Assembly (NCBI GenBank): GCA_964463925.1
Contig: CAYXDV010000004.1
Coordinates: 13,080-77,079 of the forward strand
Direction: 5' to 3'
DNA from: an uncultured Gammaproteobacteria bacterium
GTDB taxonomy: Bacteria; Patescibacteriota; Microgenomatia; UBA12405
DNA: 64,000 bases
Shown: positions 16,430-64,000 of the stretch, one piece after another
Layout: each line of letters begins with the position of its first letter
Numbering within the stretch: position 1 is the first letter of the stretch
The notes under the pieces: generated by a model
Databases searched by the model: none
What the model was told of the DNA's origin: nothing
What the model saw: the letters and a program-made list of their open reading frames with translations, nothing else
Made by a program: the position numbers and the translations under genes

Positions 16430-17158
16430 ATGAACTCAAATAGCAAATATCTTTTATCCGAGCTTTCAGTTTTTTTCCCTTGTTACAATGAATCCGAAAA
16501 TATCGAGAAAACAGTAACTTCAGCCATCACTGTTTTGAAAAAGATCGCAAAACAATGGGAAGTAATCATTGTTAATGATGGTTCAAAGGATGATACTCTG
16601 GGAAAAGCCAAGTCTTTACAGGTAAAGTATCCCAAAAATATTATCATTATTGATCATCCAAAAAATCTTGGTTATGGTGGTGCTTTTAAATCAGGCTTAT
16701 TTAAGGCCAAATATCAGTGGATAACTTTTACGGACTCTGATGGACAATTTGATTTTTCGGAATTAAAAAAACTTATCACTACTCAGCAAAAAGATCAGGC
16801 CGATGTAGTTGTCGGTTATCGCCTAAAACGACAAGACCCGAAAATTCGCAGTCTAATTGCCGGTATGCTTAAGGCTTGGAATTTTGTTTGGTTTGGCTTT
16901 CACGGAATAAAAGATGTTGATTGTGCTTTCAAGCTTTTTAAAAAAGAAGCAATTGATTCGGTTGCACCATTAAAAACCCAAAGTGCCATTACCACAACAG
17001 AATTACTAATTAAATTACAAAAGCACGGCTACAAAATCAGCCAAGTTGGCGTACATCATTACCCTAGAAAATTCGGTAGTCAAACAGGTTCTAACTTTAA
17101 AGTTATCAAACGTGCCGCAGTAGACAGTTTCAATTTATGGCGTGCTCTAAGCGCATAG
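16430..17158 (+). CDS. GT2 polyprenol-phosphate glycosyltransferase (DPM1/GtrB/ArnC-like)
   Basis: FFPCYNESENIEK...VIIVNDGSKDDT...DSDGQFD; 242 aa, DPM1-like. Confidence 0.85.
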   Translation: MNSNSKYLLSELSVFFPCYNESENIEKTVTSAITVLKKIAKQWEVIIVNDGSKDDTLGKAKSLQVKYPKNIIIIDHPKNLGYGGAFKSGLFKAKYQWITFTDSDGQFDFSELKKLITTQQKDQADVVVGYRLKRQDPKIRSLIAGMLKAWNFVWFGFHGIKDVDCAFKLFKKEAIDSVAPLKTQSAITTTELLIKLQKHGYKISQVGVHHYPRKFGSQTGSNFKVIKRAAVDSFNLWRALSA

Positions 17159-18552
17159 TTCTAACTAAAGTGCTTCTTGTTTTAGTCTTAATCTTTTCCG
17201 CTTTTTTGCGCCTATATAAAATAGATGGCTATATGGAATTTTTAGGAGACCAGGGCAGAGATGTCGTTCATGTTTGGGAATTTATAACCAAGGGTAATCT
17301 TATGTTTATTGGTCCCCAAACTTCAATCGGGAATATGTATCTTGGCCCCTGGTACTACTATTTGATCGCACCTTCTTTGTGGCTTTTCCATTTCAATCCC
17401 ATAGGTCCGGCAGTTTTTGTAGCAATTCTTGGAGTATTAACTACCTACTTGATTTACAAGGTCGGATCAAATTGGTTTGACAATAAAGCTGGCCTATTTG
17501 CTAGCCTAATTTTTGCTATTTCACCGGTAGTCATTAAATACACAAGTTTTTCATGGAATCCAAATATAATGCCTTTTTTTTCATTATTATTTATCTATTA
17601 TCTATCCAAAAAACGCTATCTCTTGGCAACTATCAGCTTTGTCTTTGTTCTAAATTCTCACTATCTCGGTTTATTGCTTTTAATTCCTGCCGCGTATATT
17701 TTTTATATAACTAATCCAAAACCAAACAAAAAAACCATTTTGACTAGTCTGTTTGTTTTACTACTTGGATTTCTGCCACTAATATTATTCGACCTAAAAC
17801 ATCATGGTCAAAACGTTGGAAATATATGGCATTTTTTTTCAAACAGACAAGAAACAGTTAATCTAAAAGCATATAAAGCATTACCAAACCTATGGCCACT
17901 ATTTACCCAAATTACTGGTCGAATCTTCTCATTGTGGGATCAATCTTTTTTAAATATCTTTTCATTACTCTTTTTGGGATTAACCATTCTTTTTATAGCA
18001 AAAAAACGCAGTCAAAATTTAATTTTAGTTTCAATCTGGATTTTTGGTGGCTTAGTTGGTTTTGGTCTTTATAAGCAACATATTTATGACCACTATTTTG
18101 GTTTTCTTTTCCCTGCCTTTTGTCTTTTAATGGGTTATATAGCTTCAAAAACCAAATTGCTTGGATCACTAATGGTTTTGCTAATTGTTTACTTTTCTTA
18201 TTATCATTCATCTCTACATTTTCAGCCAAACAATCAACTTCAGAGAACACAAAAAATTGCAGCAGAGATTTTATCAGATTCACGGGGGGATGATTTTAAT
18301 CTGGCCCTTCTTGCAAAACAAAATTATGATCCTCCATACCGCTATTTTCTGTGGCTAAATGAAGCACCAATGTATTCAATTACCGACAAAAAGACTTCGC
18401 AGCTATATGTAATTTGCGAGATGGAAATAGACCAATGCAAACCACTTGGTAATCCTGAATACAATATTGCTGCTTTTGGTGTTGCTAAACTCAAAAAGCA
18501 GTGGCAAGTAGACCAAATCACTATATATAAATTGGTAGCTGATAAAATTTAG
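17137..18552 (+). CDS. Polytopic membrane protein, putative GT-C fold glycosyltransferase; paralog of 58948-60267
   Basis: At least 10 predicted TM helices; shared N-terminal motif LRLYKI...FLGDQGRDV...IGPQTS...PWYYYL. Confidence 0.5.
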   Translation: MACSKRIVLTKVLLVLVLIFSAFLRLYKIDGYMEFLGDQGRDVVHVWEFITKGNLMFIGPQTSIGNMYLGPWYYYLIAPSLWLFHFNPIGPAVFVAILGVLTTYLIYKVGSNWFDNKAGLFASLIFAISPVVIKYTSFSWNPNIMPFFSLLFIYYLSKKRYLLATISFVFVLNSHYLGLLLLIPAAYIFYITNPKPNKKTILTSLFVLLLGFLPLILFDLKHHGQNVGNIWHFFSNRQETVNLKAYKALPNLWPLFTQITGRIFSLWDQSFLNIFSLLFLGLTILFIAKKRSQNLILVSIWIFGGLVGFGLYKQHIYDHYFGFLFPAFCLLMGYIASKTKLLGSLMVLLIVYFSYYHSSLHFQPNNQLQRTQKIAAEILSDSRGDDFNLALLAKQNYDPPYRYFLWLNEAPMYSITDKKTSQLYVICEMEIDQCKPLGNPEYNIAAFGVAKLKKQWQVDQITIYKLVADKI

Positions 18553-18553
18553 T

Positions 18554-19312
18554 ATGCAGTTGTCGATTGTTGTCCCATGTTATAACGAAGAAAATAATCT
18601 AAAACGTGGAGTCTTAGAAGAAATTTCCAAGTATCTCTTAAAGCAGGATTTTAGGTGGGAAGTAATAGTTGTTAACGATGAATCAACTGACTCAAGTGAA
18701 ACAATTTTACAAAAAAAGATTAAAAATCTACCAAATTTTTCACTTATCACCATAAAACATGGAGGCAAACCAGCAGCCGTTTGGGCAGGTATACAGCGAG
18801 CAAAATATTCCAACATTCTTTTTGCAGATATGGATCAATCTACCCCTATTACTGAATTACCAAAATTACTGCCCTGGCTAAAAGATGATTATTCTTTTGT
18901 AATAGGTTCCCGAGGTCACAGTAGAGATGGTACAACTTTGGTCAGAAAAGCAATGGCTTTTGCTTTTCTAAATTTTCGAAAAACAATGCTACTTTCAAAC
19001 ATAAACGACACCCAATGTGGCTTTAAAATAATAAATACTAAACTCGCAAAACGAATATTCCCTAAACTTGGTGTTTTCAATCAAACTGCCCAAACAGGTT
19101 GGCGTGTTTCTGCATTTGATGTAGAGCTACTATTTTTAGCCCAGAAAATGGGTTATAAAATTAAAGAAGTTGAAGTTGTTTGGAAAAATGAAGATACAAG
19201 CAATACTAAGGGTTCTGATTTGGCAAGATTTAAAAAAGAATCCAAGCAGATGCTAACAGAAATCATTCGAGTCAAAAAAAATGATTTATTAGGAAAATAT
19301 GAAAATATCTAA
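18554..19312 (+). CDS. GT2 polyprenol-phosphate glycosyltransferase (DPM1/GtrB-like)
   Basis: LSIVVPCYNEENNL...VIVVNDESTDSS...DMDQST. Confidence 0.85.
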   Translation: MQLSIVVPCYNEENNLKRGVLEEISKYLLKQDFRWEVIVVNDESTDSSETILQKKIKNLPNFSLITIKHGGKPAAVWAGIQRAKYSNILFADMDQSTPITELPKLLPWLKDDYSFVIGSRGHSRDGTTLVRKAMAFAFLNFRKTMLLSNINDTQCGFKIINTKLAKRIFPKLGVFNQTAQTGWRVSAFDVELLFLAQKMGYKIKEVEVVWKNEDTSNTKGSDLARFKKESKQMLTEIIRVKKNDLLGKYENI

Positions 19313-20807
19313 AGAATTATTCATCTTTTCCTTTTTTGCAATTGTTTTTTTCTCAAGCCGATTAGCCAATTTAACATCTCTACCAGTTTTTGCTGACGAA
19401 GCCATTTATATTCGTTGGGCCCAAATTATGAAAGCAGTAGAGACACTGCGTTTCCTTCCTCTAACTGACGGAAAACAACCATTGTTTATGTGGTCAATTA
19501 TTCCTTTTCTAAAATTCATATCTGATCCACTGTTAGCAGGTCGATTCGTTTCTGTTTTTTCTGGATTTTTATCTTTTACCGCTCTCTGGTTTCTTTGCGG
19601 ACTCGTCAACTTATCTGAAAAAAAACCTGAAAACCCCATAGATTTATTACAAGTTACCTTTTCCAAAAATTTGATATTAAAGTCAATCTTGAGTTTGTTA
19701 TTTTTAGCAAACACTTATACATTTTTCTTTGATCGTCTGGCAACTGCTGACAATTTATTGCTTGCCTTTTTGTTGCTGAGCCTAGATTTAGTTTTGCTAC
19801 AAACGGTCTATCTAAGGCTTGATTTAAGTTTGTTAATTGGCGGTTTTTTGGGGCTTGCCTGGCTAACCAAATCACCAGCAATCATTTTTCTTTTTCTAAC
19901 CACCATCTATCAATTAGTCTTTGCCAAAAACAAAATCAAATCGTTTTCTCTCTCTTTGATCTCTGCTTGCTTGATGTTTACAATTTACAATTTGCTACGC
20001 CTTGGTCCACAGTATCACATGATTGCCTTACGCAACCTTGATTATGTTTGGCCGCTCTCTGAAGTTATCAAACACCCCCTAGATCCACTAAAGCCACACT
20101 TTTTTAGTTATCTTCATCTGCTTTTTCAGTATCTTGGCCCAATAATCATCTTAATTCCCATTGGTTTGCTTCTCAATAATTTTAAAAATAAAATCTTTTT
20201 TCTCTTATTTTTTTTATTGCCAACTCTGGCAGTTTTATCCACCACTAAAGTTTTTACTGCAAGATATCTACTATTTACCTTACCGTTTTTACTTATATTT
20301 CTTGCAAATACTATAGATAACATTTTCAAAAAGAACAGATCCATATCAATCGGACTACTGTTGATTGCAGTCTTGCCCTGCCTTCTCTCAACCACCAAAA
20401 TCCTACTAGACCCCTATAAATATAAGTTCCCCACAAGTGAATCAGGATACAACTTGGATTGGACTAGTGGCTGGGGGATTAAAGAAGTTGCTAAATATGC
20501 CAAACAGCAAGCCGAAAAGGGTAACAACGTAATTCTCGCTGCTGAGGGGAATTTTGGAAATCCAAAAGATGGGCTTCAAATGTATCTAAATAATCAAAAA
20601 AATGTTACGGTCATACCTCAAGAACCACTCTTATACCAAGTATCCCCAGATTTGGAAAAAGCAAAATTGGCAGGAGATTTAGTGCTAATTGTTCACAATA
20701 GCCAACGTTTTCATATAACTGACCCAATTCAGCTTAGTCATTTAAAATCCATCGCCTCATATCCAAAACCTGATGGAAGTCAACTATTATTATTCCAATT
20801 AAAATGA
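19299..20807 (+). CDS. PMT_2/ArnT-like GT-C glycosyltransferase (GT39/GT83-like)
   Basis: FADEAIYIRWAQ...DGKQPLFMW...AGRFVSVFSG matches the DEx(Y)...KPPL...R loop of ArnT/Pmt enzymes; polytopic. Confidence 0.6.
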   Translation: MKISKELFIFSFFAIVFFSSRLANLTSLPVFADEAIYIRWAQIMKAVETLRFLPLTDGKQPLFMWSIIPFLKFISDPLLAGRFVSVFSGFLSFTALWFLCGLVNLSEKKPENPIDLLQVTFSKNLILKSILSLLFLANTYTFFFDRLATADNLLLAFLLLSLDLVLLQTVYLRLDLSLLIGGFLGLAWLTKSPAIIFLFLTTIYQLVFAKNKIKSFSLSLISACLMFTIYNLLRLGPQYHMIALRNLDYVWPLSEVIKHPLDPLKPHFFSYLHLLFQYLGPIIILIPIGLLLNNFKNKIFFLLFFLLPTLAVLSTTKVFTARYLLFTLPFLLIFLANTIDNIFKKNRSISIGLLLIAVLPCLLSTTKILLDPYKYKFPTSESGYNLDWTSGWGIKEVAKYAKQQAEKGNNVILAAEGNFGNPKDGLQMYLNNQKNVTVIPQEPLLYQVSPDLEKAKLAGDLVLIVHNSQRFHITDPIQLSHLKSIASYPKPDGSQLLLFQLK

Positions 20808-22477
20808 AATATTTTTTATCCCTAATCCTACTAATCATTCCTGCTTTTCTAGTTCTTTTAAAACCTGGCTATTACACCATGCATGATGATATGCAATTAA
20901 TACGCCAATTAGAAATGGACAAGTGTTTTTCAGATGGACAACTTCCGTGCCGTTGGGCTCCAGATCTTGGTTATGCTTATGGTTATCCTCTTTTTAATTT
21001 TTATCCACCATTGCCATATTATTTAGGGCACATAATTAGGCAGTTTGACTTCAGCTATATTGATACTGTAAAGATTCTTGGAATTTTGCAAATAATATTA
21101 TCAGCAACAACAATGTTTTTTCTTGGAAAAACACTACTAGGTGATCAAGGGGGTTTTATTTCTGGTCTGGTGTACACCTACGCACCATATCGCTTTAACA
21201 ATATCTATATTCGTGGTGCTTTTAATGAAGCCTGGGCTTCGGTATTTTTCCCGTTAGTCATCCTCTTTATTTATCGACAAATTCAAAAACCTAGCTTTTC
21301 CAACACAATACTGCTAAGTATGTCAATGGCAGGGGTTCTTCTATCACACAATCCGATGGCTTTGCTATTTTTTCCACTTGCAGGGTTTGTAGGAATCTTC
21401 TGGCTGGTTAAAAAGTTTTCATTCAAAACCATTTTGTATCTCATTTTTTCAGGAGTTCTTGCCCTTGGCTTGACCTCGTTTTTTACTCTGCCAGTTATTT
21501 TTGAAAGTAAACTAGTACAGATAGAAACAATGTTTAGTAATTATTATTCATTTGACGCACACTTTACCTCTATAAAACAGCTATTCTTTAGCAATTTTTG
21601 GGGAGATGGTCCATCACATTTTGGTCCACAGGACGGAATGTCTTTTTCCATCGGCTATATCCATTGGATGTTGCCACTTATTGGCTCTGTAAGTAGTTTA
21701 CTTTTAGTAATTAAGAAAAGAAAGTTCGACCATCTATCACAAACCATACTTATATCGTGTTTCATTGGTTTTATATGTCTTTTTTTATCACACGAGCGTT
21801 CGGCTTTCTTTTGGTCCCATATAAAGATTATTCAAAAAATACAGTTTCCTTGGCGCTGGTTAAACTTAGCAACTTTTTTTCTTTCCATTTCAACATCTAG
21901 CTCTCTCATAAGGCTTTCTAAAACTAAATTTTTTAAACCAAGTGTATTTTTTATATTAACAAGCGTCATTCTAGTTAATTATTATTATGCTTCACCTTTG
22001 CGTTGGGGGCCGCTAACTGACGAACAAAAATTCTCTGGACAATCATGGACAAATCAAATCACCTCGGGAATCTATGACTATTTACCAAAAACAGCCAGAA
22101 TTGCCGCTCAAAAACCCAGTGGGGGAGGTATCGATCAAACTATCCCTCCAGAAACTCTAAAAAACTTCACTCATCGTCAGGGTACTGATTGGGATCTTAT
22201 CAATCTGAATCTATCCTCAGCATCTACTGTTTATCTCAGTCGTCTAGATTTCCCAACTACCAATGTCTACGACAATGGTAAGCCTATTTCTCATACAGCC
22301 GAGCCAGAGCTGGGACGTATATCTGTTGACTTAACATCTGGTTACCACCAGCTTTATATTAAGTTAACAAATACGCCAATTAGAGAGTACGGAAATTTGC
22401 TATCTTTGTTTAGCGTATTACTTATTCTCTTGGGTGTTTTATGGAAACCTTATCTTCGTCAGATTCGAGCCAAATAA
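20804..22477 (+). CDS. Large polytopic membrane protein, putative GT-C/YfhO-like glycosyltransferase; paralog of 32544-34193
   Basis: 557 aa; shared N-terminal motif ...MHDD...R.L.......DGQ.PCR......G...GYPLFNFYPP. Confidence 0.5.
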   Translation: MKYFLSLILLIIPAFLVLLKPGYYTMHDDMQLIRQLEMDKCFSDGQLPCRWAPDLGYAYGYPLFNFYPPLPYYLGHIIRQFDFSYIDTVKILGILQIILSATTMFFLGKTLLGDQGGFISGLVYTYAPYRFNNIYIRGAFNEAWASVFFPLVILFIYRQIQKPSFSNTILLSMSMAGVLLSHNPMALLFFPLAGFVGIFWLVKKFSFKTILYLIFSGVLALGLTSFFTLPVIFESKLVQIETMFSNYYSFDAHFTSIKQLFFSNFWGDGPSHFGPQDGMSFSIGYIHWMLPLIGSVSSLLLVIKKRKFDHLSQTILISCFIGFICLFLSHERSAFFWSHIKIIQKIQFPWRWLNLATFFLSISTSSSLIRLSKTKFFKPSVFFILTSVILVNYYYASPLRWGPLTDEQKFSGQSWTNQITSGIYDYLPKTARIAAQKPSGGGIDQTIPPETLKNFTHRQGTDWDLINLNLSSASTVYLSRLDFPTTNVYDNGKPISHTAEPELGRISVDLTSGYHQLYIKLTNTPIREYGNLLSLFSVLLILLGVLWKPYLRQIRAK

Positions 22478-23874
22478 AATCGAAAACAATTCAAGGTGCA
22501 CTGTATTTAACCATAAGAAATTTGGGGCTTCAGGCGATATCCGCCATAGGTTTTTTTATACTAAGTATTTATTTATCTGTATCAGAAATTGGAATTTTTG
22601 GAGTTGTGGTAGAAATTGTTGGAATTTTGGGATATTTTTCTGACATCGGTTTAGCAGCTTCATTAATTCAAAAAAAAGAAGAAGTGACCACTTCAGCTCT
22701 CCAAACCGTGTTCTTAATTCAACAAATATTAACACTAGTGGGCATTTTAGTGGCTACAATAATATTTATACCCTTAGCTTCTCAGCGTGGCTATGGAACA
22801 ACAGAAATTACAATCTTTACCACCCTGTGTTTCGCATTTTTTATTTCTTCATTAAAAACTATACCTTCGGTTCTATTAGAAAGAAAATTGTCATTTGAAA
22901 AGCTAGCAAGTGTAGATATTATAGAAAATCTAACCTTTTATTTAGTAGCAATCCTTGGGGCAGCTGTTGGTTTGGGTGCCAAATCATACGCTCTGGCCAC
23001 GGTCATAAGGTCGCTTTTTGGTCTCTTATTGATATATCGCCAAATGCCTTGGAGAATCGGTTTTGCCTTAGATACAAAATCAATAAGAGAACTACTAAAA
23101 TTCGGAATTCCGTTTCAGCTGAACAGTTTTGTAGCTCTTGCCAAGGACCGGCTATCAAATCTAGCACTTTCGGGAATCTTAAGCAGGCAGCCGTTTGGCT
23201 ATCTAACATGGGCAAACAAAATATCTCGTCTTTCAATTAGCCTAATGGATGCATTTATGAGAGTTCTCTTTCCTGCGCTTTCCAGACTACAGCACGAACC
23301 TGAAACTATAAAAAAACTTTTGTCAAAATCTTCATTTTTAATTGCTTCAGCTTCTTTTGGATTACTTGGTTTTGCCAACTTTTTCATACCAGTTTTAGTC
23401 AACCTATTTCCTAATTATCAAAAGTGGCAACCGGCGCTTGTATTGCTCCCATATCTATCAATCAATGCAGGTATTGCAGCTTTAACTACTCCTTTAAACA
23501 ACGCATTTAGCGCAGTTGGCAAAATAAAAACTAATAGTAAATATATGTTTATGTGGTTAATCTTAACTTGGCTTACTTACCCAACCTTAACCACCCGTTT
23601 GGGCCTGCAAGGTAGTATCTTAGCCATTATGATTGTAGGATTTAGTTCCTTCTTTGTTTGGTTTGAGGCCAACTCTTATTTTAAGATCAATACTTTCTCT
23701 GACATAGCTGCACCACTTTTCTCTTGTTTTTTGGGAATTATCTTTGCACTTCTTTTGCCGATAAGTTTAATCAAAGGACCAGTATTTCTAGTTGTGTATA
23801 CCCTTTCACTATTCTTATTAAAAACAGCTGAGTTTCAAAATATTTATCAAAGCTTTCAAAAACACCGTGCTTAA
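22441..23874 (+). CDS. Wzx-type (MOP superfamily) oligosaccharide/polysaccharide flippase
   Basis: 477 aa; about 12-14 TM helices; N-terminus KTIQGALYLTIRNLGLQAISAIGFFILSIYLSVSEIGIFGVV is typical of polysaccharide biosynthesis protein (Wzx/RfbX). Confidence 0.75.
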   Translation: METLSSSDSSQIKSKTIQGALYLTIRNLGLQAISAIGFFILSIYLSVSEIGIFGVVVEIVGILGYFSDIGLAASLIQKKEEVTTSALQTVFLIQQILTLVGILVATIIFIPLASQRGYGTTEITIFTTLCFAFFISSLKTIPSVLLERKLSFEKLASVDIIENLTFYLVAILGAAVGLGAKSYALATVIRSLFGLLLIYRQMPWRIGFALDTKSIRELLKFGIPFQLNSFVALAKDRLSNLALSGILSRQPFGYLTWANKISRLSISLMDAFMRVLFPALSRLQHEPETIKKLLSKSSFLIASASFGLLGFANFFIPVLVNLFPNYQKWQPALVLLPYLSINAGIAALTTPLNNAFSAVGKIKTNSKYMFMWLILTWLTYPTLTTRLGLQGSILAIMIVGFSSFFVWFEANSYFKINTFSDIAAPLFSCFLGIIFALLLPISLIKGPVFLVVYTLSLFLLKTAEFQNIYQSFQKHRA

Positions 23875-25507: not shown

Positions 25508-25523
25508 TAAACTATATTAGACC

Positions 25524-32533: not shown

Positions 32534-32543
32534 GGCTATAATT

Positions 32544-51439: not shown

Positions 51440-51448
51440 ATAATATTT

Positions 51449-54544: not shown

Positions 54545-56000
54545 CAACTATCTTTTGTATCAAAAATTCAGGATTATTTTCCGGAAACGACACTTCATTC
54601 TGCAAGCTATAACCAAACGAATTAATCAACTTCTCAAAATTTTTGCCGCAGGTTACATTTTCGTCACCACTAACAACTCTTACATATCTATATTCAGCAT
54701 TAACTAGATAGGTTTGTCTTATCCATTCTTGTGTCTTTGGTTCAAGATTTTCAGTACAAAAAAAGGGCCAATAGTCATAATATTTGTTCTTTATATGATC
54801 AAAAGCAATTAGCTCATTATTTATTCCCCAATCTACTGATACAAATTTACTATCACTTTTTTTTACATGCTCGACCAAACTAAACACACTCCGAGACCAA
54901 TATTTATTAAGCAATCTGCCGTTATTCAAATTGTAAATAAAAAAAACATTTATTGCAAAAAATAAAAATGGAAGAAATTCAAAAATAAATTTAGGAAATA
55001 GATCTATCATAACATAATAAGCATATGGGAAAAGCATGTAAAAATGCCAAGAAGCTCCAGCTTTATTTGTCATCAATATTTGAAAAAAGATCCCAACAAA
55101 GAACATTCCATTCAATACTTTTACATCACAAATATTCCTTCTAATTTTTAAAACATTTAGTAAAAAAACGTAAGTCAATAGGAGTAAAACAAACACAGAT
55201 GAAACTATCTGGGGTACTGAGAACTGTGGTTTGTACAAATAATCATAAATGCTAAGACCTGAAAAGAAATGCAAAAAAGATTCACTCACGGTGACAAAGC
55301 GACTGACAAAAGATGTATTCGATGTCAACTCTGTGGTAAGTCTAAAATTTGAAAAAATAGTAAAAAAAAGAACATATGGGATTAAGAAACATTTAACAAT
55401 GAAAAAAAGATCCGAGAGTGTTCCTCTCCTCACAAAAAATGCATACACAACACAAACAACAAAAACTACATTTATGAACCAAATAAAATTTAGCTTGTTG
55501 AAAACTCCTAAAGACAGTAAAAAAGATAATAAAAAAGGCGATACTTTTTTTATCTCAGACATATTTATAAGCAAAGCAAATATGATTGTTCTAAGAAATA
55601 AATCGATTATCACTGGACCAAAGTCAGTTATAGACAAAAAAAGGATCGTGGGATTTAACAAAAAAGTTGCAACGAGGAAAAAAGTATATTTTTTTTCTAC
55701 CACACGCAAATTTAATAGTGTAAAAATCGTAACAATGAACAAACACAAAGTGGGTATTCTGATACTCAACAAACTAACGCTAAATATTTTAAAAATAAAA
55801 AAATACAAAGCAGATTTAAGAGCTCCGATGTATGGCATCAACATTATCGGAAAACCTAACAAACGTTTAAACACAAAATCGTTTGTTACTCCTCCTAATG
55901 CTGCATTTATCCAAAAAACTTCATCGTAATGTATGCCGATCGTGTTAAACCATAAAAATACTAAAACAAAAAAAGCAATTACCAATATAAAGTACCTCAT
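54537..56000 (-). CDS. PMT_2/ArnT-like GT-C glycosyltransferase
   Basis: HYDEVFWINAA...PIMLMPYIGALKS...SLLSIRIP loop followed by more than 10 TM helices. Confidence 0.55.
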   Translation of the reverse strand: MRYFILVIAFFVLVFLWFNTIGIHYDEVFWINAALGGVTNDFVFKRLLGFPIMLMPYIGALKSALYFFIFKIFSVSLLSIRIPTLCLFIVTIFTLLNLRVVEKKYTFFLVATFLLNPTILFLSITDFGPVIIDLFLRTIIFALLINMSEIKKVSPFLLSFLLSLGVFNKLNFIWFINVVFVVCVVYAFFVRRGTLSDLFFIVKCFLIPYVLFFTIFSNFRLTTELTSNTSFVSRFVTVSESFLHFFSGLSIYDYLYKPQFSVPQIVSSVFVLLLLTYVFLLNVLKIRRNICDVKVLNGMFFVGIFFQILMTNKAGASWHFYMLFPYAYYVMIDLFPKFIFEFLPFLFFAINVFFIYNLNNGRLLNKYWSRSVFSLVEHVKKSDSKFVSVDWGINNELIAFDHIKNKYYDYWPFFCTENLEPKTQEWIRQTYLVNAEYRYVRVVSGDENVTCGKNFEKLINSFGYSLQNEVSFPENNPEFLIQKIVVN

Positions 56001-57652: not shown

Positions 57653-58332
57653 GCTGCATCAAAAAAATCTGAAAATTTAATTTTTTTACCTTGGTCAACA
57701 TGTCTCGGATTATAGATAATTGGCACCTCGTGTATTGATTCTCCAGATCTTAAAACTTTAGATGTAACCTCAGGACAAAATTCAAATCTCTTCGATACTA
57801 AATTTAGAGAATCTAACAACTTTTTATCAAACATTTTGTAACAAGTGGGTTCATCAGTAATATTTGAACCATATAAAAAGTTTGTTAAGTGTGTAAGTAA
57901 CAAGCCACCCATATAAAAACTCAGGCCGGAATACTGCTTGTTTTGTCTTTCTAATCTACGAGACCCGTATACTACTTTCACTCCCTTTCTTTTCATAACA
58001 TCAAGCATTTTTATAAAATCTTTCGGATCATATTCCATATCTCCGTCTTGAACAACAACAACATCACCTTTCGAATGTTTAAATCCCGTCCTAAGCGCAG
58101 AACTTTTTCCTTTGTTAATTTCGTGGGAGATCAGAGTAAAATCGATCTTTTTACTTTTTTTGAGATCAGTCAATAATTTTAAAGAAGAATCTGTTGAACC
58201 ATCGTCAATTACTATGATCTCTTTTTTCACACTGCCAAAATCTACCGCATTTACCTTGTTCAAGACATCCAATACAGTTCTTTCCTCATTAAAAACTGGT
58301 ATAACTATCGAAATCGTTTTAATATTTTTCAT
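57622..58332 (-). CDS. GT2 polyprenol-phosphate glycosyltransferase (DPM1/GtrB-like)
   Basis: ISIVIPVFNEERTVLDVL...IIVIDDGSTDSS...VVQDGDMEYDP. Confidence 0.85.
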   Translation of the reverse strand: MKNIKTISIVIPVFNEERTVLDVLNKVNAVDFGSVKKEIIVIDDGSTDSSLKLLTDLKKSKKIDFTLISHEINKGKSSALRTGFKHSKGDVVVVQDGDMEYDPKDFIKMLDVMKRKGVKVVYGSRRLERQNKQYSGLSFYMGGLLLTHLTNFLYGSNITDEPTCYKMFDKKLLDSLNLVSKRFEFCPEVTSKVLRSGESIHEVPIIYNPRHVDQGKKIKFSDFFDAAWTLIKYRFV

Positions 58333-58895
58333 TTTACAAAAACAATTTTACTGTTTAACCCAAACTGGAACAATTCATAGTTAGATACACTGAAGCCATT
58401 ATTTTTACCCAGTAATAAAACATCACTTTCAGAATAATACTTTTTATGATCTTTAATTTCGTCTTTATTTATTATGTTTAATGAAGCCAAAAGCTCCAAA
58501 AGCGGTTTTGAAAGTTGAGTTGGTGTTGTCATAACAATCTTACCTTTCGTTTTTAAAACACGAGAAAATTCTTTAAAAAGCAAATCTACCTTGTTAGGGT
58601 CAATATGTTCCAAAACGGCTAGCATAAAAATACTATCAAAATAATCATTAGTAAATGGCAATTTATCAATAAAATTAAACTTCTTCAAAACCAAATTATT
58701 AAAACTAGTATCGTCAACATCGTAGTCTAGACCATAACCTAACCTAATACTTTGACTAATTTGTTTCAAAAAATATGCTTGAGAGCCGCAACCAAAATCT
58801 AAAACGCAACTATTTATCTTAGATTCATTCATTATTTTCGATAATCTAAGTTTTGCAATCAGCTTGTCAAAAACATTAAAATCTTTTGTCCCCAT
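58329..58895 (-). CDS. Class I SAM-dependent methyltransferase
   Basis: Motif I CVLDFGCGSQAY; LDYD acidic residue; IFMLAVLEHI. Confidence 0.7.
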   Translation of the reverse strand: MGTKDFNVFDKLIAKLRLSKIMNESKINSCVLDFGCGSQAYFLKQISQSIRLGYGLDYDVDDTSFNNLVLKKFNFIDKLPFTNDYFDSIFMLAVLEHIDPNKVDLLFKEFSRVLKTKGKIVMTTPTQLSKPLLELLASLNIINKDEIKDHKKYYSESDVLLLGKNNGFSVSNYELFQFGLNSKIVFVK

Positions 58896-58947
58896 TTATT
58901 TTTTAGAGTTTTTAAATAAGATTAAGTAAATACTGCATTCTACACTA

Positions 58948-60267
58948 ATGAAAAAAATTTTAATCACTTTAGTAATACTCTTTTTTCTCTTTCTTCGTCT
59001 TTACAGGATAAACTCATCTTTTTTTTATTTTAACGATATGGGCAGAGATTCTTTAGTCTTGTACCAATGGCAACAAACCGGCAAACCACCTCTATTAGGA
59101 CCACAGAATAGCGCCCTTCCATTTAACCAAAGTCCGATCTATTTTTACCTGCTTTACCCTATTTTTTTAATAACAAATGGCAGCCCATTGTCAGCCATAT
59201 ACACCAATTTGCTACTTTATCTGTTTACTTTTACGATATTATTTATCAGTTTTAGAAAAAGTCCACATTTTTGGGCAACAATCTTCACCATTCTTGTTAT
59301 TTCAGTCCATCCACAACAAGTAATTCAGTCACGGTTTGTTTGGAACCCGTCGTTTGTAAGTGCATTCTTGTTGCTGGGACTGTGGGCACTTGTAGAAGAA
59401 AGGATTAAGTTAGCAACCATATGTTTATCGCTTGCCATTGCCTGTAGTTTTTCAGTTCTACCTACAATTATTGCGCTTACCATAGGAATACTTTTCTGCA
59501 AAAGAAAAATCTTTGTTCGTTTTTTGTTGAATATGTTTTTATTTACCTTGATTTTTCATTTTCCCATAATCCTATTCGAACTGCGTCACCATTTTCAGCT
59601 AACAAAATCCGTATTTCTGCGAGGAACTGAGATGCAAATTGGTTTTTCATATGTACAGCAAATCAATAAAATTAATCAGTATGTTTTTTTAAACCAAAAT
59701 ATTTTTTGGTTTACTTCTATGCTTTTTATCACACTGCTAGTGGGTATTTTTTATTACAAGACAAAAAACAAAAATGGCTTATTCTTTTTTATTATTTTTA
59801 CAATAAATCTAATATCAACCACTATTTTACCAATAAACTTCCAGAGTCATTATATATTCGGTCTTTTAGTTACTTTTATATTTCTTTTATCATTTTTGCC
59901 AAAACCAATTTTCATAATTCTCTTAACTCCGTTTTTATTAAAATCTGTAAATCCTAATCAAATACTTTCATATTTTTCCCCAGCTCCAAGGACTTATGAG
60001 CAGCTGATGGCCTGTTTCCAGAACTATTGCCAAACTAATAAAACACCCACCTTTGTATCTGTCCAGTCAGAATACCATCCCTTCCATAATGGACCAGAGC
60101 ACAGGTATTTGTTACAAAAATCTGGTTGTATTGTTTACAATATTGAAGATGATTCAAACAAAACTAATCAAATGACTGTAGTTGTCGACGGAGGACAATT
60201 CTCGCCTGAAAAAACTAGTTACAACGAATTAACAACTTTTGGTCCTTATACTGTCAAAAGAACTTAG
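58948..60267 (+). CDS. Polytopic membrane protein, putative GT-C glycosyltransferase; paralog of 17137-18552
   Basis: LRLYRIN...FNDMGRDS...LGPQNS...PIYFYLLYP shared with 17137-18552. Confidence 0.5.
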   Translation: MKKILITLVILFFLFLRLYRINSSFFYFNDMGRDSLVLYQWQQTGKPPLLGPQNSALPFNQSPIYFYLLYPIFLITNGSPLSAIYTNLLLYLFTFTILFISFRKSPHFWATIFTILVISVHPQQVIQSRFVWNPSFVSAFLLLGLWALVEERIKLATICLSLAIACSFSVLPTIIALTIGILFCKRKIFVRFLLNMFLFTLIFHFPIILFELRHHFQLTKSVFLRGTEMQIGFSYVQQINKINQYVFLNQNIFWFTSMLFITLLVGIFYYKTKNKNGLFFFIIFTINLISTTILPINFQSHYIFGLLVTFIFLLSFLPKPIFIILLTPFLLKSVNPNQILSYFSPAPRTYEQLMACFQNYCQTNKTPTFVSVQSEYHPFHNGPEHRYLLQKSGCIVYNIEDDSNKTNQMTVVVDGGQFSPEKTSYNELTTFGPYTVKRT

Positions 60268-60280
60268 AAATTTACCAACT

Positions 60281-61204
60281 TTATAAAAACACAAATAACC
60301 CCGATAGAAGTGCTCCTAACAACTGAATTACTCCTATGAAGGCAGATAAGGCTAACAACGGCTCTACTGCAAATCCCATCGGAACAAAAAATAATTTATA
60401 CATTGCCTCTCTTGCTCCAAAACCACCAAAACTGATAGGGAATGCCAAAAAAAGACTGATTATCGGCATGTACACATATATAGCCAGAATTGGCAATCCT
60501 GGAACAAAAAAAATGGAAGAAAAAACAATTGGTAGAATCCAAACAATTTGAGCAAATACTGAAACCATAACAGCTATAAAAATCGTTTTTCTTTGTTCCT
60601 GCCTAAATGCTTGATCAATCCTAATCAGTTTATCTAAATATTTATTTTTACCAAGAAATCGTTCAAAATCAAATGCCAGTAAAAGCAAATAAAAAATAAT
60701 TATGCCCACAAAAAGCATGGTTATCATTAACTCGGCTTCAAATACGAGCTTGTATTTGAAAAATTTAGAAATTATCAAAGATATGAATCCCATTATCCCT
60801 AAAGTAGACAAGCCTATCACTCGGTCGACTAAAATAGAAGCTAAAATTTTTCCTTTTGGAATATTCGCAAAGCTTGAAGCATTTTTTACCCACTTTATAC
60901 CATCGCCAGCCAGTGGCGTGGGCAAGAACATAGAATAAAAACTAGCCACATTAGCATTTTTGTACATTGTTAGAAGCTGTCTAAAACTAGGTTGTCCAAA
61001 CAACACAATTCCCCAGCGAACCACAGCCAAAAAACCAACCAAAAAAGTGTAAATCAACAAAAAAATCACGAACCAAAGCGGAACTTTTGAGATTCGATTA
61101 AAAACACTAACAAAATCAACAGTTTTGTATACATAGTACAAGGCCACTGCCGATAAACCAAGCTGTACCACACGATTGTTTAAAAGATTTATAATTTTAT
61201 GCAT
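60281..61204 (-). CDS. Flippase-like domain membrane protein (LPG-synthase-TM/UPF0104-like)
   Basis: 307 aa, 7-8 TM helices; N-terminus LGLSAVALYYVYKTVDFVSVFNRISKVPLWFVIFLLIYTFLVGFLAVVRWGIVL resembles the flippase-like domain pattern. Confidence 0.5.
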   Translation of the reverse strand: MHKIINLLNNRVVQLGLSAVALYYVYKTVDFVSVFNRISKVPLWFVIFLLIYTFLVGFLAVVRWGIVLFGQPSFRQLLTMYKNANVASFYSMFLPTPLAGDGIKWVKNASSFANIPKGKILASILVDRVIGLSTLGIMGFISLIISKFFKYKLVFEAELMITMLFVGIIIFYLLLLAFDFERFLGKNKYLDKLIRIDQAFRQEQRKTIFIAVMVSVFAQIVWILPIVFSSIFFVPGLPILAIYVYMPIISLFLAFPISFGGFGAREAMYKLFFVPMGFAVEPLLALSAFIGVIQLLGALLSGLFVFL

Positions 61205-62234
61205 GCGAATATTAGCATTATCACATATTTTCCCTCCAGCTATCGATGGTGGCAGTCAGATTGTCTATCAAGCTGCTAAAAGTTTGCAGGATAGGGGACA
61301 CATCCTTCATTTTTTAAGCAGTAGTCATGCTTCCACAGACACATTTATACAAAATCCACCAGGGCGAGTATTAAGAAAGCTTGGTCAACCACCAGGACCT
61401 ATTTTGAACCCCCTAAAAATCATCAAAGCAATATTCTTTAGGCCGCAAATTATCATCGCTGGACCGCTACCTACTTCTATAATTTTTTATGCCAGATTTT
61501 TACAGCTTATGACTGGGTCAAAAGTCATATTTATACCTTGTTTTCACCCTGATAATCAGGATTTTTACAAAAAAGGTTCACTCGATTTGCTAAAACACTT
61601 TTCGCTTTGGACCTTTACTGATTTTGAAGCGGCAATATTAAAACCTTATTCACTGGATATTAAAACTCATTTTCCTGGTATCTTGCAATTGTTTTTTGAC
61701 GCCAAAACTATTCCAAAAATAATTACAAAAAAACGTAAAATATTATTCTTAGGCAATTTTGCCGCCCACAAAGGTATCTTGCCACTAATCCAATCTGTTA
61801 AATATCTACCTAAAAGCTTTTATTTGACACTGTGTGGACAACCGACACTTTACAGTAAATCCTTGGAAAAATTTTCTTCTAACTCTAGGTTAAAAATAAT
61901 ACCTCAAAAGTACTCAGCCAAAGAGGCTATCGTGCTTTTAGACCAGCACGACTTATTAGTTTTGCCTTCTCACGAAGAAAGCTTTGGTTTGGTCTTTGCC
62001 GAGGCATTGTCTAGGAAAGTTCCAGTCTTAGGGTTAAAACAATCTAGTACCACCGAGGTGTTTTCAAAATTAAAAACTGGTTATCAATTAAATAATTTAG
62101 GCCCAAAAGAACTAGCAACTGCAATTAAGTTAGCCGCAGAACAAAAAGTTACCCCCGCAACCTACACACTAGTACACCAGCTTTGTTCATGGGAAAATGT
62201 TGCTATATGGCTAGAAAGGGAATTCTTATCTTAG
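61203..62234 (+). CDS. GT4 (glycosyltransferase group 1) enzyme
   Basis: MRILALSHIFPPAIDGG (typical GT4 N-terminus) and ESFGLVFAEALSRKVPVLG. Confidence 0.75.
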   Translation: MRILALSHIFPPAIDGGSQIVYQAAKSLQDRGHILHFLSSSHASTDTFIQNPPGRVLRKLGQPPGPILNPLKIIKAIFFRPQIIIAGPLPTSIIFYARFLQLMTGSKVIFIPCFHPDNQDFYKKGSLDLLKHFSLWTFTDFEAAILKPYSLDIKTHFPGILQLFFDAKTIPKIITKKRKILFLGNFAAHKGILPLIQSVKYLPKSFYLTLCGQPTLYSKSLEKFSSNSRLKIIPQKYSAKEAIVLLDQHDLLVLPSHEESFGLVFAEALSRKVPVLGLKQSSTTEVFSKLKTGYQLNNLGPKELATAIKLAAEQKVTPATYTLVHQLCSWENVAIWLEREFLS

Positions 62235-62668
62235 TTTTATTTACCTTAAGTTTTTTAATCTATTTAAAATTCAGTACACAAGCTACAAAACCAGCTAAAT
62301 TTTCAAAACTCATACTAAAAGATAAGATTATCCAATTAGAAGTGGCCGATACTGATAATCTAAGAGCCCTTGGTTTATCAAACAGGACCAGTTTGTGTCA
62401 AAATTGCGGCATGATTTTTACCTTTACAAACCCAGGAATTTATCCATTTTGGATGAAAGACACTCTAATTCCCTTAGATATGCTTTGGCTTGACGAAAAT
62501 TTCAAAATCACAACAATCCACACGGCACTTCCAGAACCAAATCATTCTACTTGGGAGCTTACTTTGTACCAAAACGACACACCTTCCAAATACGTCCTAG
62601 AACTAAATCAGAATTTTGCTAAAAACAATGGATTAAAAATAGGAGGTCAACTTGAAATTCGCCTTTAG
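62183..62668 (+). CDS. DUF192 (COG1430) family protein with an N-terminal TM anchor
   Basis: LEVADTDNLRALGLSNRTSL...CGMIFTF...PFWMKDTLIPLDMLWLDEN matches the DUF192 signature (GLM.R..L...GMLF.F...FWMKNT.IPLD). Confidence 0.65.
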   Translation: MFMGKCCYMARKGILILVLFTLSFLIYLKFSTQATKPAKFSKLILKDKIIQLEVADTDNLRALGLSNRTSLCQNCGMIFTFTNPGIYPFWMKDTLIPLDMLWLDENFKITTIHTALPEPNHSTWELTLYQNDTPSKYVLELNQNFAKNNGLKIGGQLEIRL

Positions 62669-63443
62669 TATTATTATTCCAAATTACAACGGCAAAAAAT
62701 TTTTAAAAGAATGTCTTAGTTCAATCAAGAAACAAAAATATCAACCAATAGAAATTATTATAGTCGACAATTGCTCTACTGATTCTAGTCTAAAACTCCT
62801 AGCAAACTTCCGAAGCCTAATAATATTAGAAAATTCTCAAAATGTTGGTTTTGGACAAGCAGTCAATCAAGCTGCACAAGTAGCCAAATATCCGCATTTA
62901 ATAGTCTTGAATAATGATGTAATTTTGGAAAGTAATTGGATAGACAAAATTTCCCAAACCATAGAGAAAAACCCAAATTTTTTTGCTTACTGTGGCATTA
63001 TTTTAAAACCAGACAAAACTATCGAAAATACTGGCTTTGATTTTTACCATTTTGGACGTGCAACTTTACGTCAGCAAACAAAATCAACTGCTATTTGGGG
63101 TGCGCCGGCTACCGCCACAATTTACAACAAAGAAAAATTCCAACAGTTAAATGGTTTTTCACCAAGCTATTTTGCCTATATTGAAGACGTAGATCTTCAC
63201 TATAGGGCCAATAAATATAAATTCCAAACTTATTTTTCAAACAACATATATGCAACTCATTATGGTGGGGGAACCGCTGGCAAGGACACTGTTTTTAGAG
63301 CCTGGCACAGTTTCAAAGGCTGGCTAATTTTTATCAAACAAAATTATTCTTTTAAAGAAATTATTCAAAATTTTCCAGAGATTACAACTGAACGCCTCCG
63401 CAACATTAGCTATTTACTTAGATGTTTAGTAAAAGTAAAATAA
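62652..63443 (+). CDS. GT2 glycosyltransferase
   Basis: FSIIIPNYNGKKFLKECLSSIKKQKY...IIIVDNCSTDSS...VLNNDVIL. Confidence 0.8.
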   Translation: MKFAFSIIIPNYNGKKFLKECLSSIKKQKYQPIEIIIVDNCSTDSSLKLLANFRSLIILENSQNVGFGQAVNQAAQVAKYPHLIVLNNDVILESNWIDKISQTIEKNPNFFAYCGIILKPDKTIENTGFDFYHFGRATLRQQTKSTAIWGAPATATIYNKEKFQQLNGFSPSYFAYIEDVDLHYRANKYKFQTYFSNNIYATHYGGGTAGKDTVFRAWHSFKGWLIFIKQNYSFKEIIQNFPEITTERLRNISYLLRCLVKVK

Positions 63444-63446
63444 AAC

Positions 63447-63695
63447 ATGTCTCATACTAGGGAAGAAATATTAAATAGACAGAGGGATCAGCTTTTGAGT
63501 GGAGTCGCTCGTTTGACAGTTGATGACGAAGGTCATGCTATTCATCGCAACATGCCGCCAAAGAATCTACCAGGTAGGCATTCACACCGAAGATGCTATC
63601 CAAGCTCCGCTAGACGGATCAGTTTTGATTTTGATCCTAATGGGATATTGTATATAGACGGAACACGCGTAGATACTTCTCTGCATAAAACATGA
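63447..63695 (+). CDS. Small hypothetical ORF with atypical (Arg/His-rich, apparently higher-GC) composition
   Basis: 82-aa ORF only; no motifs; its composition differs visibly from the neighbouring Lys/Asn-rich genes. Confidence 0.2.
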   Translation: MSHTREEILNRQRDQLLSGVARLTVDDEGHAIHRNMPPKNLPGRHSHRRCYPSSARRISFDFDPNGILYIDGTRVDTSLHKT

Positions 63696-64000
63696 TCATC
63701 GGCATCGATATTTCCAGTATTCCCTATGGCACCGGAGTATCCGAATATACCAGGCAGTTAGTTTTAAACCTTTTACTAATCGACTCCAAAAACCAATACA
63801 AACTCTTCTTTGGTTCATTGCGCCAAAAGCTTCCTGTTGATTTCTTAAATCAAATTAAAAAACATCCAAACTGCAAACTCTATTCTTATCCTTTACCACC
63901 AACTCTTTTAGATTTATTGTGGAACAAGCTACATATTCTCCCAATAGAATATTTCATTGGATCTTGTGATATTTTTCATACCAGTGATTGGACTCAGCCA
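63692..64000 (+). CDS. GT4 (glycosyltransferase group 1) enzyme, N-terminal fragment continuing beyond the window
   Basis: MIIGIDISSIPYGTGVSEYTRQLV... is the typical GT4 N-terminal domain start; start overlaps the upstream stop. Confidence 0.55.
   Translation, partial: MIIGIDISSIPYGTGVSEYTRQLVLNLLLIDSKNQYKLFFGSLRQKLPVDFLNQIKKHPNCKLYSYPLPPTLLDLLWNKLHILPIEYFIGSCDIFHTSDWTQP

Follow-up and report, generated by a model that had tools for sequence, protein, structure and literature searches.

Gene content and layout of the locus

We analyzed a 64-kb stretch of bacterial DNA (contig CAYXDV010000004.1; hereafter the window), in which ~47 kb, from 16430 to 63443, are taken up largely by glycosyltransferase genes. 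This locus contains 42 open reading frames (ORFs) that cover 99.7% of its DNA. Genes are named here by the start coordinate of their ORF within the window and lie on the + strand unless marked (-). Families were assigned with Pfam, using its gathering scores, and with NCBIfam; hydrophobic segments were located by a hydropathy scan, and hhalign and Foldseek were used for comparisons of profiles and folds. By Pfam, hydropathy, and homologue evidence, 32 of the 42 genes encode glycosyltransferases, and chance is excluded as the cause of this pattern. Genes for large polytopic proteins of the GT-C type make up 42% of the bases in the locus.

The first 29 genes (16430-48236) are consecutive on the + strand, with spacing of no more than 18 nt and overlaps in most cases. 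This agrees with the co-directional, overlapping arrangement described in an earlier reading of the sequence (the original prediction). Beyond 48.2 kb, the strand alternates. Promoter and terminator scans inside the 29-gene block gave signals at chance level only, and operon ends are not defined by them. The GC content was 0.345 in this block, 0.37 in the housekeeping flank, and 0.305-0.32 in the distal part (48-63 kb), with values down to 0.305 between 51449 and 60267. The upstream flank encodes SerRS, SecA, an NAD-kinase-like protein, BipA, cyclophilin, RF1, a LytR-CpsA-Psr (LCP) protein, FtsE/FtsX, and two C39-like proteins. The LCP gene (11427-12443; LytR_cpsA_psr, 1.9e-21) lies ~4 kb 5' of the locus. 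No glycosyltransferase was found by Pfam among the upstream housekeeping genes of the window.

Pfam recognized 14 stand-alone GT2 genes, the number that had been estimated, and a fifteenth GT2 domain inside a 1031-aa fusion protein encoded at 51449. The GT2 genes fall into three BLAST groups. Four of them, 16430 (16430-17158; Glycos_transf_2, 8.6e-31), 18554 (18554-19312; 2e-23), 40579 (40579-41319), and 57622 (57622-58332, -; 3.7e-32), form one BLAST subfamily. Five others, 25524 (25524-26456), 26453 (26453-27385), 27336 (27336-28145), 29172 (29172-30044), and 30044 (30044-30838), stand with a GT4 gene, 28129, in a run of cytoplasmic enzymes. The remaining GT2 genes are 38729 (38729-39520), 41312 (41312-42271), 43770 (43770-44777), 44758 (44758-45756), and 62652 (62652-63443; 6.7e-30). 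Among these, 41312 is GT2-like, combining partial GT2 and Glyco_trans_2_3 matches with three C-terminal hydrophobic membrane segments.

Four genes encode stand-alone GT4 enzymes: 28129 (28129-29175; GT-B fold, Glycos_transf_1, 1.6e-25), 39423 (39423-40586), 46273 (46273-47439), and 61176 (61176-62234). One further GT4 domain lies in the fusion protein, and the predicted number of about six was thus slightly high. The true start of 39423 is probably ~28 codons downstream of the ORF start; its orthologue in a related locus (L027, described below) has 359 aa.

The accessory functions that had been proposed were all matched by Pfam. A Wzx-type flippase of the MOP superfamily is encoded at 22441-23874 (Polysacc_synt_3, 9e-36), and a Wzm/Wzt exporter by an ABC-2 permease gene (49960-50760; ABC2_membrane, 1.4e-18) and an ATPase gene (50753-51439; ABC_tran, 7e-24). 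A flippase-like membrane protein at 60281-61204 (-) belongs to PF03706, the MprF flippase-domain/UPF0104 family (LPG_synthase_TM, 3e-24). Glycan modification is represented by two S-adenosylmethionine (SAM)-dependent methyltransferases, one the final gene of the 29-gene block (47436-48236; Methyltransf_31, 1e-14) and the other at 58329-58895 (-; Methyltransf_23, 1.5e-12), and by a hexapeptide-repeat acyl/acetyltransferase (45740-46276; Hexapep_2, 1e-18). A B12-binding radical SAM enzyme (42290-43795) scored above the gathering score for Radical_SAM (1.2e-11) and below it for the B12-binding domain (5e-6; 26.8 bits, gathering score 32.1); it is possibly a sugar C-methylase. A DUF192 protein (62183-62668; 1.4e-27) is encoded between the last GT4 and GT2 genes.

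The last GT2 gene is followed on the + strand (63447-64000) by an 82-aa ORF and a partial ORF that runs from 63698 to the window end. Neither had a Pfam family or a BLAST match among window or relative-locus proteins. The partial ORF resembles a GT4 by eye only and, with no Pfam or BLAST support, was not counted. The glycan locus may extend beyond the window end.

GT-C features of the polytopic proteins

The hydropathy scan identified 13 polytopic proteins, exactly the number expected, each with roughly 7-11 hydrophobic segments and an N-terminal first transmembrane segment (TM1). AlphaFold2 models of two of them, 23867 and 30814, are all-helical membrane bundles. All 13 have some support as GT-C enzymes from sequence or model comparisons, with uneven strength.

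Four proteins scored above Pfam gathering scores. These are 17137 (17137-18552; PMT_2, 36.3 bits, gathering score 26.1; 8 hydrophobic segments), 20804 (20804-22477; PTPS_related, PF10131, 32.1 bits, gathering score 26.4), 35726 (35726-37297; PMT_2, 26.6 bits, gathering score 26.1), and 37275 (37275-38732; PMT, 33.6 bits, gathering score 22.7; PMT_2, 28.6 bits). PMT, PMT_2, PTPS_related, and GT87 are members of the Pfam GT-C clan CL0111 (PMC7801869). 20804 also matched PMT_2 (1.2e-4); at its C-terminal end, it has a large outside domain and a TM segment. Three further proteins are paralogues of these by BLASTP. 32544 (32544-34193) is of the PTPS_related type and matched 20804 (1e-61; hhalign 100%). 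34174 (34174-35748), itself with a weak PMT_2 match, is related to 35726 and 37275 (1e-25 to 1e-38; 9e-38 to 35726), and 58948 (58948-60267) is related to 17137 (1e-19; hhalign 99.2%).

Four other polytopic proteins were assigned through their homologues. 19299 (19299-20807) had no direct Pfam match; its orthologues (~45% identity) contain PF13231 and are named 'glycosyltransferase family 39' or ArnT-like by NCBI/JGI, and it aligned with the 35726 family at an hhalign probability of 95.7%. For 54537 (54537-56000, -), a divergent PMT_2-type protein, PMT_2 was matched in 14 of 18 homologues (best 6.5e-15), and hhalign gave 96.8% to the 35726 family. A 226-aa ORF antisense within this gene (55249-55929, +) is probably spurious, since such ORFs are frequent where the AT content is high. 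For 30814 (30814-31995), 12 of 21 homologues matched GT87, and the folds that it most resembles are those of GPI mannosyltransferase I, ALG3, and PimE, which suggests that it belongs to the PIG-M/ALG3/PimE (GT87-like) structural class.

48226 (48226-50019, -) bears out the prediction of a TMTC-like protein, having an N-terminal GT-C membrane domain followed by C-terminal tetratricopeptide repeats (TPRs) detected by Pfam. Its membrane part has 6402 homologues; among 37 sampled, all had TPR matches and 14 had PMT_2 matches, and hhalign gave 95% to the 35726 family. DUF1736 (PF08409) was not detected in 48226 at E<=0.01 and was not among the 25 most frequent families in the 37 homologues. The longest ORF of 48226 starts at a TTG and overlaps the divergent Wzm gene by 60 nt; a start at the ATG at 49938, leaving ~21 nt between the two genes, is more plausible. 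The weakest of the 13 assignments is the divergent 55997 (55997-57652, -; 8 hydrophobic segments), which matched PMT_2 below the gathering score (1.8e-4) and aligned with the 48226 family at 86% (E 4.9e-6; 343 columns).

In the hhalign network, 17137, 58948, 19299, 34174, 35726, 37275, 48226, and 54537 were joined at 77-100% probability, and the Wzx and PF03706 proteins, used as controls, never exceeded 1.5%. Transporters and Wzy/WaaL-type proteins were considered as alternative identities for the polytopic proteins and rejected, given the low control scores and the absence of any such fold match. The GT-C identity proposed in the original prediction thus gained support for 13 of 13 proteins, with none reassigned as a transporter or an O-antigen ligase or polymerase. 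An NCBIfam scan of ten polytopic proteins returned nothing except TPR matches, and PDB sequences searched with 19299, 23867, and 54537 as single sequences or profiles gave no meaningful match.

All 13 polytopic proteins have an acidic residue just downstream of TM1, and it is invariant wherever a real alignment exists. At least five of them had been predicted to carry a DE...KPPL loop signature. The DE half of this claim held, with a DE pair after TM1 in exactly five proteins: 19299 (D33-E34, in 41 of 41 sequences), 34174, 35726, 37275, and 54537 (invariant D26-E27). The KPPL half did not, as the literal motif occurs among the 13 only in 58948 (within 'GKPPL'); 35726 and 37275 have DYKPG. A DD pair follows TM1 in 20804 and 48226 (D63-D64, invariant in the 48226 family), HD in 23867, and H-P-D in 30814, the latter two invariant in their families. 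D variants are present in the first loop of 17137, 58948, 32544, and 55997.

A GT-C family encoded next to Wzx

Directly after the Wzx gene lies 23867 (23867-25507), a member of a GT-C family that has at least 1399 homologues and no Pfam or NCBIfam model. Its sequence had no match in Pfam, NCBIfam, or PDB sequences. The AlphaFold model (pLDDT 92, pTM 0.91) has oligosaccharyltransferase (OST) catalytic subunits and DPY19 as its 17 best PDB neighbors in Foldseek. The C-terminal alpha/beta domain of the model matches that of AglB, and the protein is predicted to combine a GT-C core with an AglB/PglB-type C-terminal domain. In each of the four lineages of relatives that we examined (L001, L005/L027/L028, L006, and L029/L030; see below), a 23867 orthologue comes after Wzx.

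We considered whether 23867 is a bona fide member of the STT3 family (GT66), and rejected this assignment. None of 51 family members matched STT3 even at E<=10 or gave a convincing GT-family match, and the WWDYG motif was not found in the family. A K400-D401-Y402-F-G404 sequence directly follows the last TM helix, resembling WWDYG in position only. The model appears to have ~11 membrane helices by its DSSP string, compared with 13 in STT3, AglB, and PglB. We therefore describe 23867 as OST/Pmt/AftA-like in predicted fold and do not file it under GT66.

These features invite comparison with the N-glycan pathway of the endoplasmic reticulum (ER) and archaea (ALG glycosyltransferases, RFT1, DPM1/ALG5, ALG3/9/12/6/8/10, and STT3/AglB), with which the locus shares a likeness at the level of architecture only. 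Both combine cytoplasmic glycosyltransferases, a MOP-superfamily flippase, DPM1-like synthases, and ALG3/PIG-M-like and PMT/ALG9/12-like GT-Cs, and the nearest Foldseek neighbors of 23867, with its AglB-like C-terminal domain, are STT3, AglB, and PglB. The source organism and its relatives might carry a counterpart of the ER/archaeal lipid-linked-oligosaccharide pathway, in which cytoplasmic enzymes would build an oligosaccharide and a Wzx/RFT1-type flippase would move it across the membrane. Stepwise elongation outside would then fall to ALG3/PIG-M-like and PMT/ALG9-12-like GT-Cs, with DPM1-like synthases supplying the donors, and the 23867 family would perform the final en bloc transfer. Unlike in the N-glycan pathway, however, the protein at this position lacks an STT3 sequence match and WWDYG, and it appears to have ~11 rather than 13 TM helices. 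We regard such a pathway in Shapirobacteria-like bacteria as unlikely. If it did exist, the 23867 family would represent a new, highly diverged branch of OSTs and define a new CAZy GT family.

Candidate donor synthases and the export module

The four GT2s of the 16430 subfamily are small proteins of 236-252 aa. Two of the four, 16430 and 57622, were compared with PDB sequences. The best matches of 16430, which has no TM segment, were ArnC (4e-14), DPMS, and GtrB, and those of 57622 were ArnC (6e-17), DPMS (1e-13), and GtrB (1e-13). On this sequence evidence, 16430, 18554, 40579, and 57622 are candidate polyprenyl-phosphate sugar synthases. Three of them are adjacent to GT-C genes (16430/17137, 18554/19299, and 57622/55997/54537, where 57622 lies 5' of two GT-C genes on the same strand); 40579 is instead found between a GT4 gene and the GT2-like gene 41312. 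The pairing recurs elsewhere: among 20 metagenome loci fetched with 54537, 9 contain a 57622-type GT2 along with the 54537-type GT-C, and in at least 5 the two genes are immediate neighbors. Wzm or Wzt was nearby in 4 of the 20. Such co-location is a signature of extracytoplasmic glycosylation from polyprenyl-phosphate sugar donors (reviewed in PMC11127046), and the underlying logic of GT2 donor synthase, flippase, and GT-C is established, also when coupled to ABC-exported glycans (PMC11127046). From the context of the four ArnC/DPMS/GtrB-like genes, the polytopic proteins may use polyprenyl-phosphate-linked sugar donors on the outer side of the membrane.

The arrangement resembles three-component systems (GtrA/GtrB/Gtr*, CsbB/GtcA/YfhO, and Citrobacter ORF12-15), in which a GtrB/DPM1-type GT2 is encoded beside a GT-C; putative GT2s of this type also recur near Wzm/Wzt in the 54537-type loci of other metagenome contigs. 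The locus differs from these systems in having no GtrA, SMR, or MATE flippase and no membrane helices in its candidate GT2s of this type. Moreover, it contains 13 GT-Cs, compared with one in a three-component system, and thus looks like an assembly pathway rather than a single side-chain decoration. The sole candidate in the locus for a lipid-linked sugar translocator is the PF03706 protein 60281, whose family includes fusions with the archaeal glycosyltransferase AglD and, in other organisms, with further GT domains.

The ABC-2 permease and ATPase genes lie directly 5' of the gene for the 1031-aa fusion protein (51449-54544), which contains SAM methyltransferase, GT4, and GT2 domains by Pfam. 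Wzt is a short form of 228 aa without a C-terminal carbohydrate-binding extension. The best PDB matches of the fusion GT2 domain were chondroitin and heparosan synthases; DPMS was matched weakly (5e-5), and ArnC and GtrB were not matched. The fusion protein is a candidate polymerizing and capping enzyme.

The presence of DPM1-like GT2s and GT4s, together with the fold of 30814 and the GT87 matches of its homologues, also raises the question of a membrane-anchored lipoglycan like the actinobacterial phosphatidylinositol mannosides (PIM), lipomannan (LM), and lipoarabinomannan (LAM). GT4s would start such a glycan on a lipid anchor in the cytoplasm, and its extension outside by GT87/PIG-M-like and PMT-like GT-Cs would draw on polyprenyl-phosphate sugars. 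In Saccharibacteria, genes of the PIM type have been noted, among them GT87 and dolichol-phosphate-mannose synthase genes (PMC6031116). However, the window was found to have no inositol-phosphate or phosphatidylinositol synthase and no PIM-pathway acyltransferase, Wzx and Wzm/Wzt point to intermediates linked to polyprenyl diphosphate, and an LCP gene lies nearby. We consider a lipoglycan of this kind improbable as the main product.

Conservation of the locus in relatives

Named homologues of 23867, 19299, and 30814 came from Candidatus Shapirobacteria, Woesebacteria, and 'Patescibacteria group', with 44-49% identity to Shapirobacteria proteins. The sequence thus points to a bacterium of the candidate phyla radiation (CPR) related to Shapirobacteria, which fits the small-genome organism that had been guessed. 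We compared the locus with related loci on a 15-kb contig of a metagenome-assembled genome (CAYTYZ010000021.1; L001), in Logan assemblies (L005/L027), in a Shapirobacteria genome (GCA_028685145.1; L006), and on a 795-kb metagenome contig (L029/L030). L001 is recorded as 'uncultured Gammaproteobacteria'. Its gene order follows that of the CPR-like window, with proteins 45-66% identical, and this label is probably wrong.

L005 and L027 were collinear with the window gene for gene from 16430 to ~42 kb, with 45-86% identity, and L027 contains orthologues of 38729 and 39423. In the collinear block from 16.4 to ~42 kb, amino-acid identity was 38-86% over the relatives. L001, as far as it extends, has the order LCP, hypothetical protein, FtsE, FtsX, DUF11, GT2, GT-C, GT2, GT-C, GT-C, Wzx, and a 23867-like gene, with 45-66% identity. 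In L029/L030, at 30-56% identity, a PTPS-like GT-C, Wzx, and a 23867-like gene are followed by three GT2s, a GT4, two GT2s, a GT87-like gene, and a gene for a ~190-aa protein. The order of the six cytoplasmic GT2/GT4 genes is kept in L005, L006, L027, and L029; in L006, the order is kept through the final two GT2s, and the GT87-like gene is relocated. Orthologues of 17137 were found in L001, L005, and L006. After the core, L006 and L029 each have more PMT-like GT-Cs in a reshuffled arrangement, and each has 9 polytopic genes in ~21 kb. The occurrence of this density in two distant loci indicates that a high GT-C density is a trait of the lineage.

At the position of 30814, L006 encodes an extra polytopic protein with a weak Alg6_Alg8 match (17195-18490, +), and its true 30814 homologue (28% identity) is encoded on the other strand, close to where the locus begins (3322-4533, -). 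GT-C genes are being shuffled within the locus. A conserved partner of the GT87-like gene is the 189-aa protein 31964 (31964-32533), which has a hydrophobic segment at each terminus, a ~130-aa middle part between them, and no Pfam or NCBIfam match. Its orthologues always lie between the GT87-like and PTPS-like GT-C genes (45% identity in L005/L027 and 30% in L029).

The original prediction had called the locus an island. The first ~26 kb are a conserved collinear chromosomal locus in relatives, and we rejected a mobile or strain-specific island, since synteny is conserved and the window has no mobility genes or tRNA (Rfam and tRNA scans were empty). Overall, the locus looks composite, with a conserved Wzx-centred core, a variable PMT-like GT-C array, and a lower-GC, more variable distal ABC-transporter module. 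The lower GC and the distant relatives of 54537 suggest that the distal module (51449-60267) is more variable or separately acquired.

This composite character raises the possibility that the 47 kb are several unrelated pathways adjacent in a compact genome, namely one that uses Wzx, one that uses the ABC exporter, and several independent decorations of the three-component kind. The two different exporters, the strand switches after 48.2 kb, the lower distal GC, the reshuffled PMT-like array in L006 and L029, and the distant relatives of 54537 in other contexts would be consistent with it. On the other hand, the 29-gene block runs on without a break, with overlapping genes of every enzyme class, its collinearity with L027 holds gene by gene as far as 42 kb, and a GT-rich, GT-C-dense context was seen in all relatives. 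A chance neighborhood of separate pathways is very unlikely.

Genes upstream of the locus

The 29-gene block adjoins a gene for a DUF11/CLIPPER surface protein with a signal peptide (15769-16374, -), as it also does in L001 and L006. The C-terminus of this protein has the look of a sortase-sorting signal, with 'VPDTG', a hydrophobic stretch, and RRLARGY. The gene has a promoter that matches the sigma-70 consensus at 12 of 12 positions (16410-16382, -) and a strong terminator (15754-15731, -) with a 10-bp stem containing 7 GC pairs. From these sequence elements, it looks like a highly expressed single-gene unit. The DUF11 protein is a possible glycosylation target.

Further upstream, 12898-15700 (+) encodes FtsE, FtsX, and, directly after them, a protein in which a Peptidase_C39_2 domain is preceded by a signal peptide and a ~200-aa coiled coil. 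A wall hydrolase partner under FtsEX control (PcsB/EnvC-like) would be expected to have such an architecture, although the predicted catalytic domain here is C39-like. A second C39_2 protein is encoded at 8801-9409. The LCP gene has an orthologue in the same relative position in L001.

The surface protein bears on whether the locus mainly serves general protein glycosylation. In that case, the PMT-like and TPR-containing GT-Cs would O-glycosylate secreted and surface proteins, each paralogue with its own substrates, 23867 would act as an OST for the Wzx-flipped glycan, and pilins and sortase-anchored DUF11 proteins would be candidate targets. Several observations are in keeping with this: 37275 exceeds the Pfam PMT gathering score; 48226 is TMTC-like, and TPRs bind proteins; Foldseek ranks OST catalytic subunits first for 23867, whose C-terminal domain resembles that of AglB; and the DUF11 protein with its sortase signal is a conserved neighbor of the block. 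Likewise, the locus shares with actinobacterial Pmt/Ppm1 O-mannosylation of proteins the PMT/PMT_2 matches and the DE motif in loop 1, and with eukaryotic TMTC proteins the combination of GT-C domain, TPRs, and DD motif in 48226. The soluble DPM1-like GT2 of the locus is reminiscent of Ppm1. However, no MIR domains were found and DUF1736 was not detected, the multiplicity here is far higher than in Pmt/TMTC systems, and the genes are embedded among 18 cytoplasmic glycosyltransferases and two glycan exporters. PMT_2 profiles also span ArnT-type enzymes that modify lipids and glycans, 23867 lacks an STT3 profile match and WWDYG, and Wzm/Wzt, LCP, and the 18 cytoplasmic glycosyltransferases with the fusion enzyme better fit polymer synthesis. 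Protein glycosylation as the main function is quite unlikely.

A model for envelope-glycan assembly

We propose that the locus is a lineage-conserved chromosomal envelope-glycan factory that combines lipid-linked intermediates with an unusually long extracytoplasmic assembly line, a reading to which we assign a probability of roughly 0.6. It builds on the gene content, the family and fold assignments, the collinearity, and the recurrent GT2/GT-C co-location, and the donors, acceptors, products, and order of steps given here are those that we infer from them. The three readings discussed above, namely protein glycosylation, a lipoglycan, and a set of unrelated pathways, partly overlap with this model. 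The GT-C content supports the extracytoplasmic glycosylation machinery of the original prediction, which would act on proteins and/or a wall polymer, the two functions that the prediction had also left side by side.

In this model, the six conserved cytoplasmic GT2/GT4 enzymes (25524-30838) would build an oligosaccharide on a polyprenyl carrier, with the primer enzyme encoded elsewhere, and Wzx would flip it across the membrane. The four ArnC/DPMS/GtrB-like GT2s would load single sugars onto polyprenyl phosphate, and these donors would cross the membrane with the PF03706 protein as the candidate mover. Outside, twelve GT-Cs of three types (PMT/ArnT-like, PTPS_related, and PIG-M/ALG3/PimE-like) would extend and branch the glycan, and 23867 would handle the flipped oligosaccharide, either by en bloc transfer or by priming onto an acceptor. 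A second module, comprising Wzm/Wzt and the 1031-aa methyltransferase-GT4-GT2 enzyme, would make and export another chain, which the opposite-strand GT2/GT-C genes (54537-58332) might decorate. The methyltransferases, together with the radical SAM enzyme and the acetyltransferase, would supply methyl and acetyl groups. The product might end on the wall via the nearby LCP protein, a possible attachment enzyme, and/or on surface proteins.

Among the closest known parallels is the assembly of mycobacterial arabinogalactan and LAM. That system comprises the GT-Cs EmbA/B/C, AftA-D, PimE, and Mpt, the Wzm/Wzt-type Rv3781/Rv3783, GlfT GT2s, decaprenyl-phosphate donors, and Lcp1. In both cases, many GT-Cs would extend a glycan outside from polyprenyl-phosphate donors, and an ABC-2 exporter, initial cytoplasmic GT2/GT4 steps, and a nearby LCP-type enzyme are further common elements. 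In mycobacteria, several distinct GT-C arabinosyltransferases act on galactan (PMC11127046). The present locus differs in having 13 GT-Cs within 47 kb of a CPR genome, plus a Wzx flippase. The window contains no DPPR synthase/UbiA or DprE-type genes, no Emb-type carbohydrate-binding domain was detected, and no Arabinose_trans or AftA_N match was found by Pfam in the locus. Compared with Wzx/Wzy-dependent pathways, Wzx is present, whereas Wzy, a WaaL-type ligase, and an initiating phosphoglycosyltransferase were not found in the locus.

Several observations weigh against the envelope-glycan model. Pfam detected no initiating phosphoglycosyltransferase, Wzy polymerase, WaaL-type ligase, chain-length regulator, or nucleotide-sugar synthesis gene anywhere in the window, and no GtrA, SMR, or MATE flippase among the 42 locus genes. 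By hydropathy, none of the four candidate donor synthases has membrane helices such as those in ArnC, GtrB, and archaeal DPMS. The role given to 23867 draws on fold and gene position, because its family has no STT3 or GT-family sequence match. In the metagenome scan, in which 54537 was the one distal gene searched, its full-length relatives were only 23-30% identical. Given these distant relatives and the lower GC, the distal part may be a functionally separate pathway.

Significance

All parts of the locus belong to known enzyme classes, and several of its genes are already labelled GT39 in public annotation. What is unusual is that so many and such diverse GT-Cs share one operon-like locus, and that this locus occurs and is conserved in CPR bacteria. 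A second unusual feature is the large 23867 family, which has no profile model and a predicted fold between OSTs, Pmt, and AftA. We found no description of such glycosyltransferase loci in the literature on CPR, Patescibacteria, Microgenomates, or Shapirobacteria, which is weak evidence of novelty given the incomplete library that was covered. The locus also offers concrete parts, including four candidate polyprenyl-phosphate sugar synthases, a compact cassette of Wzx and six glycosyltransferases that could be expressed in E. coli, and the GT-C family without a model. If 23867 transfers oligosaccharides en bloc, OST-like enzymes in bacteria would be more widely distributed and more diverse than is known.

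CPR bacteria, or Patescibacteria, are very small, mostly uncultured, and probably host-attached cells. To our knowledge, their surface chemistry is essentially undescribed. If the genome is of CPR size (~1 Mb), the locus would account for several percent of it, and the order of its core genes has been kept by selection across relatives with ~30-56% protein identity. The locus probably builds an unusually elaborate surface glycan. It points to an elaborate coat of envelope glycans or glycoproteins in these organisms, possibly serving host attachment, phage defence, or wall integrity without an outer membrane.

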